This document shows positions 3,942 to 31,972 of a DNA stretch of 64,000 nt, in pieces (within the stretch, counting starts at the first letter, position 1; every line of letters starts with the position of its first letter). This DNA is from Mycobacteriales bacterium (GTDB lineage Bacteria > Actinomycetota > Actinomycetes > Mycobacteriales > CADCTP01): the NCBI GenBank assembly GCA_035995165.1, contig DASYKU010000112.1, forward strand, positions 2,377 through 66,376, given 5' to 3'. The notes below the pieces were generated by a model that did not search any database, had not been told where the DNA came from, and saw only the letters and a list, made by a program, of their open reading frames with translations. Made by a program: the position numbers and the translations under genes.

Positions 3942-4726
3942 CCGCGACCGGCACCACCGAGAAGGACGCCGCGGCCGACCTGCTCTTCGGCATCTCCCAG
4001 GGCCGGCTGCCCCACCCGGTCCCGGACATCCTCAGCGAGTACGGCGACGGCTCGGTCGATCCCGGCGCCGAGCTGCAGGTCGCGGTGCTGGACCGGTGGC
4101 AGGCGGCGGGGGAGCGGGTCGGCGGCTGGAAGATCGCCTGGACCTCGCGCGGCGGCCGTGACCGCGGCGGCGTCGGCTACCGGCCCTTCGGCTACATCCT
4201 GGCCAGTCGCATCGTCCGGTCCGGAGCGACGTTGTCCCGGGCGGACATCCACGTCCCCGTGCTCGAGGCCGAGCTGTGCCTGACCATGGGCGCCGAGCTG
4301 AGCGGCCCGGCGGTCACGGTCGAGCAGGCGCGGGCCGCGGTCGCCGCGGTCAGCCCGTCGTTCGAGATCTGCTCGCGCCGCGGGATGGGCCTGTCGCTGG
4401 CCGCCCGGGTCGGCAACGCGATGAACAACTGGGGCCTGGTGGTCGGGCCGGAGCAGGACCCGGCCCGGGCGACCGACGCCGTGCCCGTCCGGCTGGTCCG
4501 CGACGGGGTGGAGGTCAGCTCCGGGGTGACCGACCGGGAGACGGTGGACGACCCGTTCCTGTCGCTGACCCGGGTGTGCGCGTCGCTGGACGCGTTCGGC
4601 CTCGGGCTGCACGCGGGCGACCGGCTGCTGACCGGGTCGATCCTCGCGGGCGCGGACGTCGGCGAGGCGCGGGAGATGACCGCGACGTTCGGCGACCTCG
4701 GCTCGGTCACGATCAACTTCGGCTGA
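3938..4726 (+). CDS. 2-keto-4-pentenoate hydratase / 2-oxohepta-3-ene-1,7-dioate hydratase family (FAH fold)
   Basis: C-terminal 262 aa of ORF 3719..4726. GTG at 3938 overlaps the upstream TGA (GTGA). GGWKIAWTS..., EAELCL and GDRLLTGS patterns are typical of MhpD/HpcG-type hydratases. Confidence 0.75.
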   Translation: MTATGTTEKDAAADLLFGISQGRLPHPVPDILSEYGDGSVDPGAELQVAVLDRWQAAGERVGGWKIAWTSRGGRDRGGVGYRPFGYILASRIVRSGATLSRADIHVPVLEAELCLTMGAELSGPAVTVEQARAAVAAVSPSFEICSRRGMGLSLAARVGNAMNNWGLVVGPEQDPARATDAVPVRLVRDGVEVSSGVTDRETVDDPFLSLTRVCASLDAFGLGLHAGDRLLTGSILAGADVGEAREMTATFGDLGSVTINFG

Positions 4727-23737: not shown

Positions 23738-25360
23738 TCAGCCCCGCAGCAGTTCGAACAGCGGGCGGGACGGAGCCGGATCGACGTGCGCCCCGACGAG
23801 CATCGGCCGATCGCCGTGCAGGCCCTTGGCCACCGCGACCCGCAGCTCCTCGGCGTCGTACGCATCCACGCCGTCGATGCCGAGCGCGCCGGCCAGCTTG
23901 CCGCACTGGATCGGCGGCAGCGTGACCCCGACGGTGGCCAGCTTCCGGCGCTCCTGTTTCACCTGGATCTGGGTCAGCGCCCGGTCCATGAGCACGACGA
24001 ACACGGCCGGCGCGCCGTCGCCGGCCGAGACCGCCAGCTCGGTGGCGCGCATGAGCAGCGAGCCGTCCCCGAGGAAGGCCAGCACCGGCCGGGCGCCGGC
24101 CCGGCGCGCCCCCACCGCGGCCGGGATCGAGTAGCCCATCGTGGACAGCGCGTTCGAGGCCAGGAACCGGTCCGGCAGCGTGGGCTCGCTGAGTAGCGCG
24201 ATCAGCGGCTTGCTGAACCCGGCGTCGGCGACGAGGTAGCCGTCGGACGGCCACGCCGACAGCGCCGCATCCACCGCGTGCGCCACCGAGAACGTGTCCG
24301 AGTCCGGCAGGAGCGTGGCGCGCACGCCCCGCCGGTAGGCGGCGACATCCTCGGCGGTCCAGGCCGATGGTCCGCCGCCCCGTTCGGTGAGCGCGGCCAG
24401 CGTGGCGTCCGGATCGAGGACCAGCCGATCGGCGAACGGGTTCATCCACTCGGTGAACAGCTCATCGGTGATCGCGACCGGGTTCGCGCCGAAGCACCAC
24501 GGCTTGTTGTAGAAGTCGAACGCCTCGGGATCAATCATGACGACCAGATCGGCCCGGTCCAGGATCGCCTTCTCGAACCGCCCATTGAGAAACGTTCCGG
24601 CATGAAAGGGGAACGCGGGGTCGAGGGCGCCCTTCTGCCGGGTCGTGGTGAACACCGGCACCCGCCAGGCCGCCGCGAACGCGGTGACGGTCGCCCGGCT
24701 GACCCGGCGGCGCCGGCCGCCGAGCACGAGGGCCGGCCGCTCGGAGACGGCGAGCCGGTCCCGCAGGCCGTCCGGTGCAGCGGTGGCCCGGAGCGCGGGT
24801 CCCGCGGACCAGCGGTCGTGCAACTGCCGCACCGCGGCCTCGGCGGCCGCGTCGGTGGCGACCGCGGGGGAGGTGGACACTCCGTCCGGGATCTCCAGGT
24901 ACACCGGACCCGGCCGGCCGGACATCGCCTCGTCCAAGGCCTTGCCGAGCACGGCGGGCAGGTCCATCCCGGCGGTCACCCGGGCCCGCCACTTGGTCGC
25001 GGGGGCGACCAGGGACTCGATGTCGAACCCCTGCCGGACCACGAACGGCAGCCCGTCGGCCGGGTGCTGGCCCGAGATCAGCAACAGCGGGACCTGCTCC
25101 AGGTATGTGTTGAGCAGCCCGTTGATTCCGTTGCTCACGCCCGGGGCGAGGGACAGCACCGCGACACCGGGCAGTCCGGTCAGCTGTGCGTCGGTCGCGG
25201 CCATGATCACCGCGGAGGTCTCGTCGAAGGCCGTGCAGTACTCCAGGCCCGCGCCGGCCAACGCGTCGAGCAAGGCCATGTGATCCTCGCCAGGCAAGCC
25301 GTAGATCCGCCTGACCCCGAGTGTGTGCAGCATCCGGCCTAGTTGCCGCCCAACGTCCAC
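23738..25360 (-). CDS. thiamine-diphosphate-dependent enzyme, acetolactate-synthase-like family (paralogue 3, more divergent)
   Basis: ORF 23738..25360, GTG start. Motifs ...IYGLPGEDH..., FDETSAVIMA and GDGSLLM.... Confidence 0.85.
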   Translation of the reverse strand: MDVGRQLGRMLHTLGVRRIYGLPGEDHMALLDALAGAGLEYCTAFDETSAVIMAATDAQLTGLPGVAVLSLAPGVSNGINGLLNTYLEQVPLLLISGQHPADGLPFVVRQGFDIESLVAPATKWRARVTAGMDLPAVLGKALDEAMSGRPGPVYLEIPDGVSTSPAVATDAAAEAAVRQLHDRWSAGPALRATAAPDGLRDRLAVSERPALVLGGRRRRVSRATVTAFAAAWRVPVFTTTRQKGALDPAFPFHAGTFLNGRFEKAILDRADLVVMIDPEAFDFYNKPWCFGANPVAITDELFTEWMNPFADRLVLDPDATLAALTERGGGPSAWTAEDVAAYRRGVRATLLPDSDTFSVAHAVDAALSAWPSDGYLVADAGFSKPLIALLSEPTLPDRFLASNALSTMGYSIPAAVGARRAGARPVLAFLGDGSLLMRATELAVSAGDGAPAVFVVLMDRALTQIQVKQERRKLATVGVTLPPIQCGKLAGALGIDGVDAYDAEELRVAVAKGLHGDRPMLVGAHVDPAPSRPLFELLRG

Positions 25361-25426: not shown

Positions 25427-26749
25427 TCAAGGGGATCTGACGCCCGACGCCCCGTCCGTGGTCACGTCGCCGGCGACTCCGGCGGGCCGGGGTGGCGCGG
25501 GCTCGTCAGCGGAGGCCAGGGCGGCGGCGAACCGTCGGGAGATGCCGGGCGCCCGCCGGAGCACGAGCAGCCCGCCGAGGCAGGCGGCCAGCGCCGCGAT
25601 CCCGCCGGACAGCACCGACCAGCGCGCGCCCGCGACCCCGCCGATCCAGCCGACTATCGGCGAACCGATCGGGGTCGTGCCCTGCTGCACCACGACGTAG
25701 AGGGCGATCACCCGCCCGCGCAGCGCGGGTGCGGTCGAGAGCTGCACCGCGGTGTTGCAGCTGTTCAGGAACGTCACGGTGCACAGACCGATCGGCACCA
25801 GCAGCACCGCGTACGCCGCGTACGTCGGCATCACGCCAGCCAGCGTGAGCAGGCAGCCGAACGCGATCCCGGCAGCGACGAGCAGTGCCAGCCGGGGCCG
25901 CTCCCGGCGCGCGGCCAGGACGGCGCCGGCGAGCGAGCCGATCGCCATCACCGAACCGAGCAGGCCGTACTCGCGCGGTCCCTTGCCGAACGGCCCGGTG
26001 GCCATCAGTGCGTTGGTGAGCTGGAAGTTGAGCCCGAACATGCTGACCACGCCGGTCATCGCGAACACCAGCACGAGGTCCGGACGGTGCCGGACGTACG
26101 ACAGGCCCTCCCGGACCTGACCCTTGCGGCGGCGGGCACGGTTCGACGCGTACATCTCGCCGGGGCGCATCCGGGCCAGGGCCACCAGCACCCCGGCGAA
26201 GCTGCCCGCGTTGATCAGGATCGCCGGACCGGTGCCGGCCGCGGCGATGACAAGTCCGGCGACGCCGGGACCGATCAGCCGTCCGACGTTGAGCGAGGCG
26301 CTGTTCAGGCTCACCGCGCTGGTCACGTCCGCCCGCGGCACGACCTCCGACACGAATGCCTGGCGGGCGGGGTTGTCGACCGCCGACGCAATGCCCAGCA
26401 GCAGGGCGCAGGCGAACACGTGCCAGAGCCGGACCGTGTGCGTCACTGTGAGCGTGCCGAGAACCAGCGCGCTCAGGCCCATCACGCTCTGGGTGACCGC
26501 TAGCACCCGCCGTTTGGAGTACTGGTCGGCGATCAGCCCGGCGTGCGCGGAGAACGCGATGAGCGGCGCGAACTGCAGGCCGGTGACGACGCCCACGGCA
26601 AACGCCGAGTGGCGGGTCAGGATGACGAGCACCAGCCAGTCCTGGGCTGTCCGCTGCATCCAGGTACCGGTGTTCGAGACGACCGTGCCCGTAGCCCAGA
26701 GTCGGTAGTTCCGACTGCGGAGCGCGCGAAACGATGAGCTCATGACCAT
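25427..26749 (-). CDS. MFS transporter (EntS/MFS_3-like)
   Basis: C-terminal 440 aa of ORF 25427..27106 starting MVMSSSFRALRSRNYRLW. About 12 hydrophobic helices; the N-terminal motif is typical of the DUF894/MFS_3 clade. Confidence 0.85.
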   Translation of the reverse strand: MVMSSSFRALRSRNYRLWATGTVVSNTGTWMQRTAQDWLVLVILTRHSAFAVGVVTGLQFAPLIAFSAHAGLIADQYSKRRVLAVTQSVMGLSALVLGTLTVTHTVRLWHVFACALLLGIASAVDNPARQAFVSEVVPRADVTSAVSLNSASLNVGRLIGPGVAGLVIAAAGTGPAILINAGSFAGVLVALARMRPGEMYASNRARRRKGQVREGLSYVRHRPDLVLVFAMTGVVSMFGLNFQLTNALMATGPFGKGPREYGLLGSVMAIGSLAGAVLAARRERPRLALLVAAGIAFGCLLTLAGVMPTYAAYAVLLVPIGLCTVTFLNSCNTAVQLSTAPALRGRVIALYVVVQQGTTPIGSPIVGWIGGVAGARWSVLSGGIAALAACLGGLLVLRRAPGISRRFAAALASADEPAPPRPAGVAGDVTTDGASGVRSP

Positions 26750-26770
26750 CGAACCACCCGGTGTCAATGA

Positions 26771-26790
26771 TTGTATGTAACCAGAACACA
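26771..26790. promoter_or_regulatory. candidate GntR operator GTATGTA-acca-GAACACA
   Basis: ttgtatgtaaccagaacaca lies about 22 bp upstream of the MFS start. Confidence 0.4.
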
Positions 26791-26876
26791 ATATGCCGAG
26801 AGTTCTCCGGCAGTCAGGCGCGGGGTCGATCAATTGGTGGCGTTGCCGATCGGGCTGCCGACACCTGGGGCGAGCC

Positions 26877-27112
26877 GGGTCTGTTGCATGCGTCGAGCCC
26901 GGCGGCGGCGCTTGGGCTCGACTGAGGAAGCTGACCGCGTGCGTCGACCTCGAGCCGTCCGTCCCTGCGTTCCTCGGTCGGCGTTTGCCGGGTTTCGGTT
27001 CCCACCCGACGTGATCACCCTCGCGGTCCGGTGGTACCTGCGCTACGGCCTGTCCTACCGCGACTTGGAAGAGCTGCTCGCTGAGCGCGGTGTCGAGGTC
27101 GACCACGTCACC
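26877..27112 (+). mobile_element. IS6-family element, left end: terminal inverted repeat plus first ~58 codons of the transposase
   Basis: GGGTCTGTTGCATG at 26877 resembles the IS26-type IR GGCACTGTTGCAAA. GTG at 26939 follows gaggaag. The translation ...FAGFRFPPDVITLAVRWYLRYGLSYRDLEELLAERGVEVDHVT is the conserved IS6 N-terminus; similarity stops at 27112. Confidence 0.75.
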
Positions 27113-27244
27113 GGTGTCTACCTCAGCTGTGCCCGACAGGCCGGGTCTGGCTCAAGACCGGGAGTAGCCGACCGTCCGCCTGCCCAGGGGTTGAGTTGGC
27201 TCCTGCCTGTGAGACTGCGGCTCGCCACGACCGGCCGCGATCGG

Positions 27245-27340
27245 CCGCGGACGACGCTGAAGTCCGCGAGCTGAGGCGTCGGAACAAGCAACTGGAGCAG
27301 AGAACGAGATCCTGCGTCGGGCGACGGCCGACGTCGCCGG
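27245..27340 (+). mobile_element. IS3-family orfA scrap (leucine-zipper end, frameshifted)
   Basis: ...DDAEVRELRRRNKQLEQ then, one frame over, ENEILRRATA. This is the characteristic end of IS3 OrfA; there is no DDE region nearby. Confidence 0.45.
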
Positions 27341-27538
27341 AGGCACTCCTAAGCTGTATTTCCGTTGGCCCTCGACTCTCACGCCAGGTTGCCCAACTGA
27401 CCGGCGACGACCGCCGCACCGACTGACCGCCAGCTTCAACTGCTGTTACACCCGGTTTCAGACGGCTTTGAGTGGTGGACCGGATCGTCTCCCCAGCGCA
27501 CGGAATGAGGCCGTGCCGGGCTGATGGGAGCGATCACC

Positions 27539-28486
27539 ATGAACGACGGGCGTCGGAACTCCGGTGCGCGAAGAACGAAGCCACAAGATGTGGCACGACG
27601 CCGTCGGATCGGGGCGGTGGGCGTCGTCGGAGGCGCCGCGGCGCTGTCCGTCGCCGTTGCCGGGTGCTCGATGAGCGCCGGAGCGTCGGCCCAAGCGCTC
27701 GACGCCGCGCCGCCGCCGTATACGTACCAAGGCAATTCGGTGCAGCAGTACTCGGTGCCCGACGGAGTGACCAGCCTGTCGATCACGGCCATCGGCGGGT
27801 CCGGAGGCAAGGGGGCGACCGCCTCGTCGCGGTCCAACGGCGCCCAGGTGACGGGAACCCTCGCCGTCCAGCCGAACCAACTGCTGCTCATCTCGGTCGC
27901 CGGCGAGGGCGGCAACGCCGGCAGCGACGACACCGACCCGGCCGGTGGCTGGGGCGGTCTGAACGCGAAGGGCGGCAACGGCAACGCCGCCAAGGACCAC
28001 CAGCGCACGTCCGGCGCCGGCGGCGGCGCCACCACGATCCAGCTGGCCGCCGCCGACGGCAGCAACCCGCAGACGGTGCTGGTCGCGGGCGGCGGCGGTG
28101 GCTCGGGCGCCGCGAGCGGCGACCCCATCAACGCCGGCTCCGGCGGCAGCGCGGGCTGCAACTTCCAGGGGTCGCCGTGGTGGCCGGGCGCCGACGGCAG
28201 CAACGGGAGCAGCTCGGTCCTCAAGGGCGGCAAGGGCGGTACGGCGGCAGGCGAGTCGGGCCCAGCCGGCGGGCGCGGTGACGGCGGATCCGGGTTGGGC
28301 GGCAACGGCGGTGGCGGTGGAGGCGGCGTCAACGGCGGCAACCCGGGCACCGGCGCAGCCATGACCTCAGCCGGCGGCGGCGGGGGCGGGGGAAGCTCCA
28401 CCACCTCCGGCATGGGCGACGTCAGCGTGGCGTGCGCCTCGACCAGCGGCAACGGCTCAGTCGTCATCAGCACCAACGCCAGCTGA
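27539..28486 (+). CDS. glycine-rich lipoprotein, paralogue 1 (glycine-rich-domain protein)
   Basis: ORF 27524..28486. ATG at 27539 lies 9 nt after gggag. Basic N-terminus, hydrophobic stretch and lipobox VAGC. Conserved block YTYQGNSVQQYSVPDGVTSLSITAIGGSGG, then long G-rich segments. Confidence 0.8.
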   Translation: MNDGRRNSGARRTKPQDVARRRRIGAVGVVGGAAALSVAVAGCSMSAGASAQALDAAPPPYTYQGNSVQQYSVPDGVTSLSITAIGGSGGKGATASSRSNGAQVTGTLAVQPNQLLLISVAGEGGNAGSDDTDPAGGWGGLNAKGGNGNAAKDHQRTSGAGGGATTIQLAAADGSNPQTVLVAGGGGGSGAASGDPINAGSGGSAGCNFQGSPWWPGADGSNGSSSVLKGGKGGTAAGESGPAGGRGDGGSGLGGNGGGGGGGVNGGNPGTGAAMTSAGGGGGGGSSTTSGMGDVSVACASTSGNGSVVISTNAS

Positions 28487-28549
28487 CCATCCGCCGGCGC
28501 ACCCCTTTCTCATCCGCCGGCCGAGGCCGGCTCTCGACAGGAGCTCGAC

Positions 28550-29536
28550 ATGACACAGCACGACAGCACGACAGCACGACCGGCGCCGCGCCGACGCCAC
28601 CCGGACAGGATGCGTCGCGCCGGGATCGCGGCGACGGTCTGCGGGCTGGTGGCCACGGCGCCCGCGCTGGCCGCCTGCGTGCCGGCCACGACCAGCGCCG
28701 GCGCGCGGGCCGTCGACGCGGTGGTCGGCACCACCCCGGAGCCGTTCGGATACACCGGCGCGATGGTGCGGTACCAGGTGCCCGACGGCGTCACCTCCCT
28801 CGCGATCACCGCCAGGGGCGGCTCCGGCGGGACGACCAACGAGCCGTACCTCAACGTCAAGGCCGGCGGGGCCGCGGTGACCGGGACCATCGCGGTACAG
28901 CCCGGCCAGTGGCTCCACATCTCGGTCGCGGGCGAGGGCGCGGACGCCGGCTCGTCCGACGCCGACCCGAAGGGCGGCTGGGGCGGGCTGAGCGCCGTCG
29001 GCGGCAACGGCAACGCCGCCAAGGACGACCTGCGCACCTCCGGCGCCGGCGGCGGCGCCACCACGATCCAGCTCACCGATATCAACGAGAACAACCCACA
29101 AACCATCCTCGTCGCCGGTGGCGGCGGTGGCCTGGGCGGACCGAGCGGCGACCCCGAGTTCGCAGGTGAAGGCGGCACGGCCGGCTGCACCGGCGATCCG
29201 TCCGACTCCCCGGCTCCGTCGTGGACCGGGTCAAACGGTGCCCACGGGTCGTCCATCAAGGGCGGCAAGGGCGGTGCAGCCGGCGGCCAGCCGGGGATGG
29301 CCGGCCAACGCGGCAGCGGCGGCTCCGGCCTCGGCGGCAATGGCGCCGGCGGAGGCGGCGGCGTGAACGGTGGCAACGGCGGCACGGGAGCCAGCCTGAC
29401 CTCGGCCGGCGGGGGCGGCGGAGCCGGCAGCTCGGCCACCTACGGCATGACCAACACCAGCATCTCCTGCGCGGTTGACAACGACGGCGCAGGAATCGGC
29501 AACGGTCAGGTGACCGTCACCCCCATCTCACTCTGA
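28550..29536 (+). CDS. glycine-rich lipoprotein, paralogue 2
   Basis: ORF 28550..29536 with RBS aggag. Lipobox LAAC. Collinear with paralogue 1 (FGYTGAMVRYQVPDGVTSLAITARGGSGG ... GGNGNAAKD..RTSGAGGGATTIQL ... LVAGGGGG). Confidence 0.8.
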   Translation: MTQHDSTTARPAPRRRHPDRMRRAGIAATVCGLVATAPALAACVPATTSAGARAVDAVVGTTPEPFGYTGAMVRYQVPDGVTSLAITARGGSGGTTNEPYLNVKAGGAAVTGTIAVQPGQWLHISVAGEGADAGSSDADPKGGWGGLSAVGGNGNAAKDDLRTSGAGGGATTIQLTDINENNPQTILVAGGGGGLGGPSGDPEFAGEGGTAGCTGDPSDSPAPSWTGSNGAHGSSIKGGKGGAAGGQPGMAGQRGSGGSGLGGNGAGGGGGVNGGNGGTGASLTSAGGGGGAGSSATYGMTNTSISCAVDNDGAGIGNGQVTVTPISL

Positions 29537-29556
29537 CGTCGTGCGCGAGTCCGGAC

Positions 29557-29587
29557 GTCCGCCGGTCGGCACGGCCAACCGGCGGAC
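29557..29587 (+). terminator. hairpin, perfect 10-bp stem (gtccgccggt / accggcggac)
   Basis: Begins 21 bp after the stop of glycine-rich paralogue 2. Confidence 0.55.
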
Positions 29588-30023
29588 GGTGCGCACCTTG
29601 GCAGGGGCAGGGGAAGGCTGCGGGTCTTTGCTGCCGACATGACCGTCGGCGCGGAGGTGGCGGGCGCGTTCCCTGCGGTGGATGCCGGCCTGGGTCCGGT
29701 GACGCTCGCGGTCGCCTGCGCCGAGACCGACACCGTCTCCTACCGCCTCGCCACTCCCAGCGCGGCACCACCTACCCACCGGTCACCTGCTTGCCGGACG
29801 GCGGCGTGGCCATTCCTGGAAGCTGCCGTCGGGTGAATCGGCCCGATCGGCAGCAGCCGGGTCGTCCGATGCCGCTAGTCGAGTGAACTCTCGCAGGATG
29901 AGCTGACCGCGAACGATGGTCGCCGCCGTCCCTGTGCCGGTATCGCCCGCGCGAACGCACTCATCTGCCGCGATGAGGCCGGCTCATACGGGGCGAGATT
30001 GAGGCCGGTGTGGGCACGTGCTC

Positions 30024-31295
30024 CTAGGCGATCAGCAGCGAGGGTGTCCCGTTGATCGGGCCGGGGAGCCGGGCAACGGATCGGGGTGCGTCGAGGCCGG
30101 GATGCCAGGCGAGCAGGTGGGTGTGGTCGCCGTCGTTCACGGCGACGAAAAGCCAGCTGCCGTCGTCGGCGATGACAAGGCCGGCGTCGGTTTTGGGCGC
30201 GAGTTCCAGGTTGGGCACGATGTCGAGGCGGCCGGTGTCGAGATGCAGCAGGGCGATGTCGGCCGGCGGGATGGGATGTCCGGGGTCGAATCGGGGGTCG
30301 GTGTGGGCCCGGGCGAGCTGGAACACGGCCAGCCGGCCGTCGCGGCTGACGGATCCGGCCGAGACCGGGACTCGGCCGGTGGGCAGGACGTAGCGGCTGC
30401 CTTGGTGACCGGTGCGGAGATCGATCCGGGCGATGGTGCACGAGGCGGTGGCCCGGCCCAGGGCGCAGGAACCGAGCTGGAGCAGAAGGTCGCTTCGGTC
30501 GACGGCCAGTGGTATGCCGGCGCCGAGCGTGCGTACCGGCCGGCCGGTGCTGGGGTCGAGAAGCACCACGTGCGGCATCGCGCTGACTTGATCTACCCCG
30601 GCCACGATTCCAGCGGCGGCGTCCGCTACCGGGTAGGCGCCGGAGGGCAGGGCCACCGCCCGACCACCGTTCAGTGGGCGCAACCTGACCGGGATGGTCG
30701 GCGGGGCGAACTCGTCCGGGTAGTCCACCGCCCAGACCCGGCCCGCACCGGCCAGCAGGCCATCGACCGGCGTCGCGGCAAGGGGGTGCGCCGTGCCATC
30801 GTCCAGCCGGTAGACCCGGCCGGCGACGCCGTCGCACCGGGCGGACGTCGTATAGACGACCCCAGCCGCCGACACCAGCCCGCTCACCGTGTGGGTGGCG
30901 TCGGTGGGTATTCCACGGACGGGCCGCGCCGTCCCGGTGTCGGCATCGACCAGGCGCACCCCGTACCCGCCGACCAGCAGCCGGACACCGATCCGCTCGG
31001 TCAGCGGCTGTGCGCTCAGCAGCGACCGGAACGCGGTGCTCCCGCAGGCACCGGCAGCCGACGGCCAAGGCGACGGCGGTGACAGCGACAGTGACGGTGA
31101 CGGTGACGGTGACGGTGACGATGCAGAGGCCGGGCCAGCGGCCGGTGGCCGATCGGACCCCGCTTTGCCGGCCCGATCGCCACCTGCTGCCGCCCAGCTG
31201 GCGGCCCCGAGCGCGATGACGACCCCGGCCACCAGCCAGACCCAGCGGGGCGGCCCCGAGCGACGAGACCCGCCCCCCTCGAGTACGTCGCTCAC
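30024..31295 (-). CDS. membrane-anchored hypothetical protein with beta-propeller-like ectodomain
   Basis: C-terminal 423 aa of ORF 30024..31874. GTG at 31295 is the only nearby in-frame start. One TM helix (WVWLVAGVVIALGAASWAAA), an (SP)n linker, then repetitive beta-strand-like sequence. The opposite-strand ORF 30018..31082 looks like an artefact. Confidence 0.6.
   Translation of the reverse strand: MSDVLEGGGSRRSGPPRWVWLVAGVVIALGAASWAAAGGDRAGKAGSDRPPAAGPASASSPSPSPSPSLSLSPPSPWPSAAGACGSTAFRSLLSAQPLTERIGVRLLVGGYGVRLVDADTGTARPVRGIPTDATHTVSGLVSAAGVVYTTSARCDGVAGRVYRLDDGTAHPLAATPVDGLLAGAGRVWAVDYPDEFAPPTIPVRLRPLNGGRAVALPSGAYPVADAAAGIVAGVDQVSAMPHVVLLDPSTGRPVRTLGAGIPLAVDRSDLLLQLGSCALGRATASCTIARIDLRTGHQGSRYVLPTGRVPVSAGSVSRDGRLAVFQLARAHTDPRFDPGHPIPPADIALLHLDTGRLDIVPNLELAPKTDAGLVIADDGSWLFVAVNDGDHTHLLAWHPGLDAPRSVARLPGPINGTPSLLIA
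31079..31120. repeat. hexanucleotide microsatellite (GTGACG)5 preceded by two imperfect units
   Basis: gtgaca gcgaca gtgacg x5 on the plus strand encodes SPSPSPSPSLSLSP in the minus-strand gene. Confidence 0.95.
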
Positions 31296-31465
31296 CCGGC
31301 CAACATAGCGCCGAGAATTCTTTCGGCCGATCACCGGTGACAGTCTCTCCCGCGGGCCGGCCAGCTGCGAACTCGTGCGCAGATCCCGACCGCCTGATTC
31401 GGAGGACGAGGCGACGCACACATCTGCCGCCGGTGTGTGATTGCCGGTGCTGGCGATCGCGCCGG

Positions 31466-31972
31466 TCATTCTCCGGTCTGTCCGTCGATCCGCTCGCGGA
31501 CGAGATCGGCGTGCCCGTTGTGCCGGGCGTACTCGCCGATGAGCTTCTGCAGGTTCCACCGCACGCTGTAGCCGTTGCCGCTGCCGACGGAACCCAACTC
31601 GGCGTGCTGCTCGATTCGCTCGTCGGCGGCCTGTTTCTCCCGCTCCCAGGCCGCCATCGAATCGGCCAGCATTGAGGAATCGGCGTCGATGTCCCACTCC
31701 GGGCTGCCGTCGCTGTACTCGCCCCACACGAACCGCAGCTCCGACTTCGGCCCGAGCGCCCACACCGCGTACACCCGCTCCATCTCCGTCAGGTGACGGA
31801 CCAACCCGAGCAAGGACAGCGGTGACGGTGGCGCGGACCGGGTCGCCAACTGCTCCGCGTCGAGGCCTTCGCACTTGGCCTCCAGCGCATTGCGGTGGAA
31901 CGCGAGCCAGCCCAACAGGACACTGCGCTCCTCACCGTCCGACGGCTCCGGTACCCGCGGCAGAACGCTCAT
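31466..31972 (-). CDS. DinB-family / DUF664 (mycothiol-dependent-enzyme-like) protein
   Basis: ORF 31466..32032; the start at M21 (31972) gives the usual ~168 aa. Motifs ...LLGWLAFHRNALEAKCEGLDAEQL...LSLLGLVRHLTEMER...HNGHADLVRE. Confidence 0.8.
   Translation of the reverse strand: MSVLPRVPEPSDGEERSVLLGWLAFHRNALEAKCEGLDAEQLATRSAPPSPLSLLGLVRHLTEMERVYAVWALGPKSELRFVWGEYSDGSPEWDIDADSSMLADSMAAWEREKQAADERIEQHAELGSVGSGNGYSVRWNLQKLIGEYARHNGHADLVRERIDGQTGE

Follow-up and report, generated by a model that had tools for sequence, protein, structure and literature searches.

A tandem pair of predicted glycine-rich lipoproteins with an ALK/LTK-type domain in a Mycobacteriales genome

Two adjacent glycine-rich genes and their products

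The stretch of DNA analysed here (64,000 nucleotides, referred to as the window; Mycobacteriales bacterium, assembly GCA_035995165.1, contig DASYKU010000112.1, positions 2,377 to 66,376 of the forward strand) contains at positions 27539 to 29536 two adjacent plus-strand genes, A and B, which encode paralogous glycine-rich proteins. Both products are predicted lipoprotein precursors carrying a single TNF-like/glycine-rich (TG) domain of Pfam family PF12810, the domain found in the animal receptors ALK and LTK. The features of the pair are the following.

27539..28486, plus strand: gene A, 315 amino acids (aa), predicted lipoprotein precursor with a single TG (PF12810) domain
27524..28486, plus strand: longer open reading frame (ORF) of gene A from an alternative ATG, 320 aa
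27656..27667, plus strand: putative lipobox VAGC of A, a sequence pattern with Cys at 27665-27667
27704..28483, plus strand: TG domain of A, residues 61-320 (320-aa numbering), with 8 predicted beta strands and about 13 glycine-rich motifs
27961..28050, plus strand: best-conserved part of A, WGGL..GGNGNAAKD..RTSGAGGGATTIQL; its DNA identity to 28990-29079 of B is 87-90%
28157-28159 and 28433-28435, plus strand: Cys212 and Cys304 of A (320-aa numbering)
28487..28549, plus strand: A-B spacer of 63 nt; GGAG at 28540-28543 precedes the ATG of B by 6 nt
28550..29536, plus strand: gene B, 328 aa, predicted paralogous lipoprotein precursor with a single TG domain
28667-28678, plus strand: putative lipobox LAAC of B, a sequence pattern with Cys at 28676-28678
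29186-29188 and 29468-29470, plus strand: Cys213 and Cys307 of B

The ATG at 27539 is the likelier start of A because the sequence GGGAG (27526-27530) lies 8 nt before it. From this codon the product has 315 aa and not 316, the length given in the initial annotation, whose 328 aa for B were correct. No site resembling a terminator was found in the A-B spacer, and the arrangement of the sequence suggests that both genes are probably co-transcribed. BLASTP comparison of A with B gave 56% identity over 209 aa (E 3e-53), and the identity of both proteins in the family alignment was 59%. In addition, direct DNA repeats with a spacing of 1023-1035 nt run across A and B and confirm a tandem duplication. 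All these results agree with the previous description of the genes as two adjacent, collinear paralogues on the plus strand.

Pro-rich ORFs are also present on the opposite strand (27436..28476 and 28510..29439). The G+C content at third codon positions (GC3) was equal in the sense frame of A and in its Pro-rich antisense frame and, as both frames share codon position 3, it cannot tell one from the other. The coding strand was judged instead by the stop codons in four homologous genes (L003, L004, L008a and L008b; homologous loci and proteins are designated by L and P numbers). The antisense frame is broken by 2-5 stops in each of these genes and by 2 in B, with none in A, whereas the sense frame is open from end to end in all four homologues. 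The glycine-rich sense frame is the coding frame, and this point is settled.

At the N-terminus of A, the residues RRRR are followed by 19 hydrophobic residues and VAGC; in B, RMRR precedes a further 19 hydrophobic residues and LAAC. Both proteins match the lipobox pattern [LVI][ASTVI][GAS]C with a basic n-region and a hydrophobic h-region, and the lipobox, including its Cys column, is common to the 15 closest homologues (15/15). The basic N-terminus, hydrophobic helix and lipobox previously recognised in both products are thus real features, and A and B may be lipid-modified at the lipobox Cys. RR motifs, for which a Tat signal was considered, are not kept across the homologues. The columns of Cys212 and Cys304 are present in nearly all of the 15 closest, lipobox-bearing homologues, and neither is found in most of the more distant members, where the lipobox is lacking. 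Since the two columns co-vary, one disulfide probably braces the TG domain in the lipoprotein subfamily. The linker between the lipobox Cys and the domain has about 17 residues. Given this linker and the general envelope architecture of monoderm actinobacteria, the TG domain would sit in the wall zone beside the membrane and not on the outer surface, and the exposure implied by calling A and B surface proteins is doubtful.

An 8-nt perfect tandem repeat, ACAGCACG x3.2, was found at 28555-28580, spanning codons 2-10 of B. As its period is not a multiple of three, a change in the number of units would frameshift B. The repeat, with just three copies, may be a weak candidate for slipped-strand on/off switching. 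An Rfam scan of positions 26500-30200 gave no match.

Family membership and predicted fold

Comparison with Pfam revealed that A matches PF12810 (ALK_LTK_GRD) with 29.6 bits (E 8.7e-7), passing the gathering score of 24.5, and that the alignments of A and B to this profile cover its positions 12-201 of 243. As controls for compositional matches, eight sequences were prepared by reversal, by shuffling within 15-residue blocks or by full shuffling. None of them matched any Pfam family at E ≤ 10 and, as a consequence, the match to PF12810 depends on sequence order. At E ≤ 1, the only other Pfam family was a sub-threshold A2M for A; RTX and PE families were absent, and no NCBIfam model matched A or B. 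The motif blocks quoted in the initial annotation were all located in the translations of both genes, and its assignment to PF12810 was upheld, with A above the gathering score, B just below it and the controls negative.

A database search with A identified 65 relatives of about 300 aa, the best being 69% identical. Nearly all of these are metagenomic, and many are already annotated with PF12810, a family that was also found in 31 of the 42 aligned members (E ≤ 1e-3). When the profile of the family alignment was compared with all PDB sequences, only ALK (E 9e-5, at the N-terminal beta block) and LTK were retrieved; single-sequence searching of the PDB sequences gave chance matches only. A scan of genome contigs with the glycine pattern confirmed at least two loci, in Microlunatus and Branchiibius. 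Within the lipoprotein subfamily, conservation is 88% at Gly positions and 61% at non-Gly positions, and, inside the domain, the largest insertions follow residues 216 and 309.

AlphaFold2 models were built with alignments of 42 sequences for A and 41 for B. The mean pLDDT was 87.6 for A and 87.1 for B, with pTM values of 0.79 and 0.80, respectively. Within the domain pLDDT was mostly 94-98, low confidence being confined to the signal peptide and the linker. In A, blocks of 10 residues were mostly at 96-98, and the strands of the models exceeded 95. DSSP assigned 8-9 strands and almost nothing else to the models, and 73% of the confidently modelled domain of A is neither helix nor strand. Segments of polyglycine-II receive no DSSP label, and such a high unlabelled share is expected for them. 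On these models, A and B contain a predicted TNF-like beta-sandwich subdomain, and their glycine motifs would be packed as a lattice of polyglycine-II helices. A Foldseek search of the PDB gave 21 matches at E ≤ 0.001 for each model, all of them to the TNF-like/glycine-rich regions of ALK and LTK (human and Caenorhabditis elegans), with E values of 1e-8 to 1e-4 and a probability of 1.00; the best values were 1e-7 for A and 1e-8 for B. The next match for B was the cyanophage Pam3 fibre (7YPX, E 0.02), and all others were above 0.5. The ALK/LTK-type fold proposed beforehand is therefore backed by confident models for which ALK and LTK are the only significant matches in the PDB. The structural classification of A and B as TG-domain proteins is close to certain.

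The same domain was found far beyond this pair. Comparison of the model of A with predicted viral structures gave 90 matches at E ≤ 0.001 (best E 8e-13, TM-score 0.60, among the cyanophage proteins), including virion and short-tail-fibre proteins of cyanophages, proteins of Caulobacter phages and minor tail proteins of Mycobacterium and Gordonia phages. Three PHROG families of unassigned function also match, with E values from 1e-6 to 9e-9. An exhaustive search with the family profile, covering 1.84 billion cluster representatives, gave 16,786 matches at E ≤ 0.001, 4,865 at ≤ 1e-10 and 166 at ≤ 1e-30; the weakest of the 16,786 may be partly compositional. Giant proteins of 5,000-7,800 aa (P0066, P0067, P0073 and others) bear 8-12 TG copies, and the multidomain relatives sampled also bear Ig-like (Big), cadherin-like, PKD, discoidin and T9SS sorting domains. 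Because of these 16,786 clusters and the multidomain bacterial relatives, the TG domain is to be regarded as a widespread extracytoplasmic module and not as a rarity. The novelty suggested at first for the pair is accordingly smaller, also since a phage fibre of the same fold has been solved (PMC9608196).

Age of the duplication and genomic surroundings

DNA identity between A and B is 63% overall and rises to 0.87-0.90 in 60-nt windows between 27961-28050 and 28990-29079, where the longest exact run is 35 nt. The stretch of about 90% identity reported initially was thus confirmed, but not the recent duplication or gene conversion deduced from it. By the Nei-Gojobori method, A and B differ with pS 0.46 and dS 0.72, equal in size to the values of A or B versus the L004 gene. 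In the block itself pS was 0.17 for A versus B, and the distant homologue L008a gave 0.19 versus A and 0.14 versus B. Gene conversion in the 27961-28050 block was rejected, as a distant homologue has an equally low block pS (0.14-0.19); the identity is explained by a strong bias in codon use on the motif that is best conserved.

On the contig of the closest homologue (L011) there is an orthologue of A (69% identical) and, 53 nt later, an orthologue of B (70%), which begins with MTQH like B itself. Tandem pairs were also identified in L012, with a spacer of 81 nt, and in the more distant L008, with a spacer of 103 nt. In a neighbour-joining tree, one group comprised A and the first gene of both the L011 and the L012 pair, and another comprised B and the second L011 gene. 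Given the dS of about 0.72 and the orthologous pair in L011, the duplication is old, with both types kept side by side. This conservation of the pair argues for non-redundant and possibly cooperative roles. In L008 (1846-3799), the products of the tandem pair, P0023 and P0025, have identical signal-peptide cores and diverged domains (dS 0.46); without lipobox and cysteines, they are a non-lipoprotein version of the paired arrangement.

Around the pair, three further features were delimited, the two insertion sequence (IS) relics serving as context only.

26984..27112, plus strand: IS6-family transposase relic, residues ~5-47 (43 codons)
27243..27360, plus strand: frameshifted IS3 OrfA-like relic, ELRRRNKQLEQ / ENEILRRATA in three-frame translation
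30024 to ~31330, minus strand: downstream convergent gene, ~435 aa, with an N-terminal membrane anchor, a Ser/Pro linker and a ~330-aa C-terminal domain

The first relic matched the IS6100 transposase in tblastn (65% identity, E 4e-13) and annotated IS6 transposases in blastn. No other IS6 piece or second transposase half was detected by tblastn with the IS6100 transposase in the whole 64 kb, and no inverted repeats were found flanking A and B. An insertion bounded by IS6 was therefore rejected, with only the truncated upstream relic, no second half and no flanking inverted repeats. The previous statement that both genes lie inside DNA interrupting an IS6 element reduces to this fragment of residues ~5-47. 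We take the second relic to resemble the C-terminal leucine-zipper part of IS3-family OrfA. It may be that the promoter originally belonging to the pair was displaced by the IS relics upstream of A.

The window has a G+C content of about 72%, and GC and GC3 of A and B are like those of their surroundings. Among the neighbours are genes for a 2-hydroxyacid dehydrogenase, a thiamine pyrophosphate (TPP) enzyme, an MFS transporter, a mycothiol S-transferase (2 kb from the pair), an SMP-30-like lactonase and a GntR regulator; no phage genes were found among them. The mycothiol S-transferase gene and the G+C content both speak for an actinobacterium. Transposase genes also lie 1-3 kb downstream of the homologues in L009 and L010, and the presence of transposases at these two loci and near the window genes fits a patchy distribution in variable regions.

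The downstream convergent gene had been proposed as a beta-propeller gene whose synteny with the pair should be followed. Searches of Pfam, PHROG and PADLOC gave no match for it and, as none of the eight homologous loci L001-L008 contains the gene, conserved synteny with the pair was rejected. Its Ser/Pro linker is encoded by the repeat CGGTGA x7.3 at 31077-31120. As called, the ORF (30024..31874) extends too far at its 5' end and runs into the mycothiol S-transferase gene. Between the convergent stops there is a gap of 487 nt (29537-30023) in which no convincing ORF, Rfam match or terminator-like site was found.

Several other observations concern the neighbourhoods of the homologues. Genes for TPP enzymes are found at a distance of up to about 5 kb from the glycine-rich genes in the window (23738-25360), in Branchiibius L002 (~4292-4660) and in L004-L007 (8786-10489 in L004). 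These enzymes show about 28% mutual identity, and their recurrence may be due to chance. Genes for FAD_binding_4 oxidases lie just upstream of two distant single-copy homologues (3977-6004 in L009; 4809-5642 in L010). In L009, a 163-aa ORF without Pfam hit shares 4 nt with the start of the glycine-rich gene, an arrangement suggestive of translational coupling of the two.

A possible binding role and comparison with known systems

The explanation that best fits these data, which we regard as fairly probable, is that A and B are a co-transcribed pair of lipid-anchored TG-domain proteins in which a rigid glycine scaffold carries variable loops able to bind a ligand in the envelope. Both proteins would be exported, lipidated on the lipobox Cys and tethered by the ~17-residue linker at the outer face of the cytoplasmic membrane. 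The remainder of each would be a single ALK/LTK-type TG domain, consisting of a TNF-like sandwich with long glycine-tract loops. The conserved glycine lattice would act as the rigid scaffold and the variable, indel-rich loops as the binding surface. The pair would then be an envelope module for binding or recognition, possibly acting as an A/B hetero-complex. This role is proposed by analogy with the binding of cytokines by ALK/LTK and with the recognition of the host receptor by gp24 of cyanophage Pam3.

Several points weigh against this explanation. The binding function is drawn wholly from the analogy with ALK/LTK and gp24, and the literature searches found no experimental work on any bacterial cellular PF12810 protein, in agreement with the earlier remark that the bacterial members are functionally uncharacterised. 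The match of B to PF12810 (21.7 bits, E 2.3e-4) is under the gathering score. TM-scores to ALK/LTK were 0.34-0.47, the root-mean-square deviation being about 10 Å; the modelled architecture would thus be common to both, with a geometry that is not closely superposable. No partner gene is common to the loci, the neighbour lists of L009-L012 included, so that a candidate ligand or partner gene is missing. The homologues P0004 and P0005 are single genes and pairing is not obligatory. Finally, no promoter was detected upstream of A, which leaves the expression of A and B in this strain unproven.

Another possibility is that A and B are passive structural or protective parts of the envelope, either a protease-resistant spacer or a flat glycine surface touching ice, mineral or wall polymer non-specifically. 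Polyglycine-II bundles are reported to form flat ice-binding surfaces in the snow-flea antifreeze proteins (10.1101/2023.11.25.568672). The much stronger conservation of Gly than of loop positions and the lack of a conserved partner gene would also suit such a role. However, both characterised TG-domain proteins bind specific partners, and two differentiated paralogues kept adjacent across organisms fit specificity better than bulk structure. On balance, a passive role is rather unlikely.

Going further than a general binding role, A and B might be a membrane-tethered heteromeric receptor of the wall zone, which would bind a specific peptide or a glycine-containing wall ligand through the variable loops. 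It would be the cellular prokaryotic counterpart of the ligand-binding module of ALK/LTK and of the phage tips, possibly near their evolutionary source. We consider this proposal clearly unlikely as it stands.

An origin from phages was also considered: the pair might be a receptor-binding domain that has become domesticated, or else a lipoprotein of the prophage type that blocks a phage receptor, for superinfection exclusion or as a decoy. The fold is common in predicted fibre and tail proteins, actinophage minor tail proteins among them, three PHROG families match it, and the genes of the window, L009 and L010 have relics of mobile elements or transposases close by. However, the neighbours are metabolic, MFS transporter and regulatory genes and not phage genes, there is no N-terminal attachment domain of the fibre type, and the base composition of A and B does not depart from that of their surroundings. 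In addition, tblastn gave no match to A or B in 50,697 phage records or in 72,556 plasmids, megablast of 24 kb gave nothing relevant, and PADLOC gave no hit. Taken together, a phage origin is very unlikely.

Even less credible is an assignment of the pair to beta-roll proteins that bind Ca2+, of the RTX or PE_PGRS type. Their likeness to A and B consists of a superficial GGxG-rich composition and of one phage homologue annotated automatically as "PE-PGRS family protein", but neither RTX/PE (HemolysinCabind) Pfam hits at E ≤ 1 nor a periodicity of GGxGxDxUx nonapeptides were found, and the significant fold matches in the PDB are TG domains only, making this alternative extremely improbable. The last one, that the antisense Pro-rich ORFs are the real genes or that the region is low-complexity non-coding DNA, is effectively refuted: the antisense frame of A is stop-free with a GC3 equal to that of the sense frame, but it is interrupted in B and in the homologues, and it is the sense frame that has Shine-Dalgarno starts, signal peptides, an order-dependent Pfam match and confident folds.

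Whatever the role of the binding module proposed above, A and B are genuine further members of a family that is large and known but functionally uncharacterised, to which they add modest new details: the conserved A/B pairing, the predicted lipid anchor and the co-varying pair of Cys residues. Two "hypothetical glycine-rich proteins" can now be annotated with confidence as TG-domain proteins, and as lipoproteins by prediction. Few protein architectures are understood as little as that of the TG domain. It is carried by more than 16,000 protein clusters, most of them bacterial, and the solved examples returned by our PDB fold searches are only one cyanophage fibre and the metazoan ALK/LTK receptors, themselves drug targets. 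With its roughly 260 residues, no other modules, a natural partner paralogue and a probable disulfide, such a compact domain would offer a tractable model for the folding of glycine lattices and for binding by them. The pair could also show whether the animal receptor module, the receptor-binding tips of phages and the bacterial envelope proteins share an origin.

Among the known systems, gp24 of cyanophage Pam3 contains a TNF-like domain and a glycine-rich one that is responsible for recognising the host, its glycine stem being conserved and its loops variable; the structure of the fibre (7YPX) has been solved and compared with ALK (PMC9608196). A conserved scaffold with variable loops is also the pattern of the A/B lipoprotein subfamily, and gp24 and the predicted phage fibre, virion and minor tail proteins have the TNF-like sandwich and glycine lattice that are predicted for A and B. 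Unlike gp24, A and B have neither an alpha-helical domain at the N-terminus for trimerisation and baseplate attachment nor a fibre chaperone gene or a phage context, and their N-terminus is a predicted signal peptide. The multidomain bacterial proteins P0074, P0077, P0114 and P0066 bear the same domain (profile E 1e-50 to 1e-118) in one to twelve copies. They have 0.5-7.8 thousand aa and combine it with Ig-like, PKD, cadherin-like, discoidin and T9SS domains, whereas A and B are single-domain, paired predicted lipoproteins. In the adhesin gp38 of Salmonella phage S16 and in the snow-flea antifreeze protein, polyglycine-II packing forms a rigid platform, as may be the case in A and B. Both are without the TNF-like sandwich, neither was among the 50 best PDB fold matches of either model and, as far as tested, their likeness to A and B is analogous and not homologous.

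Finally, the TG supradomain of ALK/LTK (PDB 7NX1, 7MZY, 7LRZ and 7LIR) is comparable with A and B in the match to PF12810, in the extracytoplasmic setting and in having about 13-14 glycine-rich motifs, with a sequence identity of 14-23%. In contrast to ALK/LTK, both A and B end with the TG domain and have no MAM, LDLa or EGF-like domain, transmembrane helix or kinase, and there is no ALKAL-like ligand gene near them. Their predicted anchor is a lipid and not a helix, and the subfamily has a Cys pair of its own. A and B therefore share their domain with the ALK/LTK receptors but are not receptors of that family.

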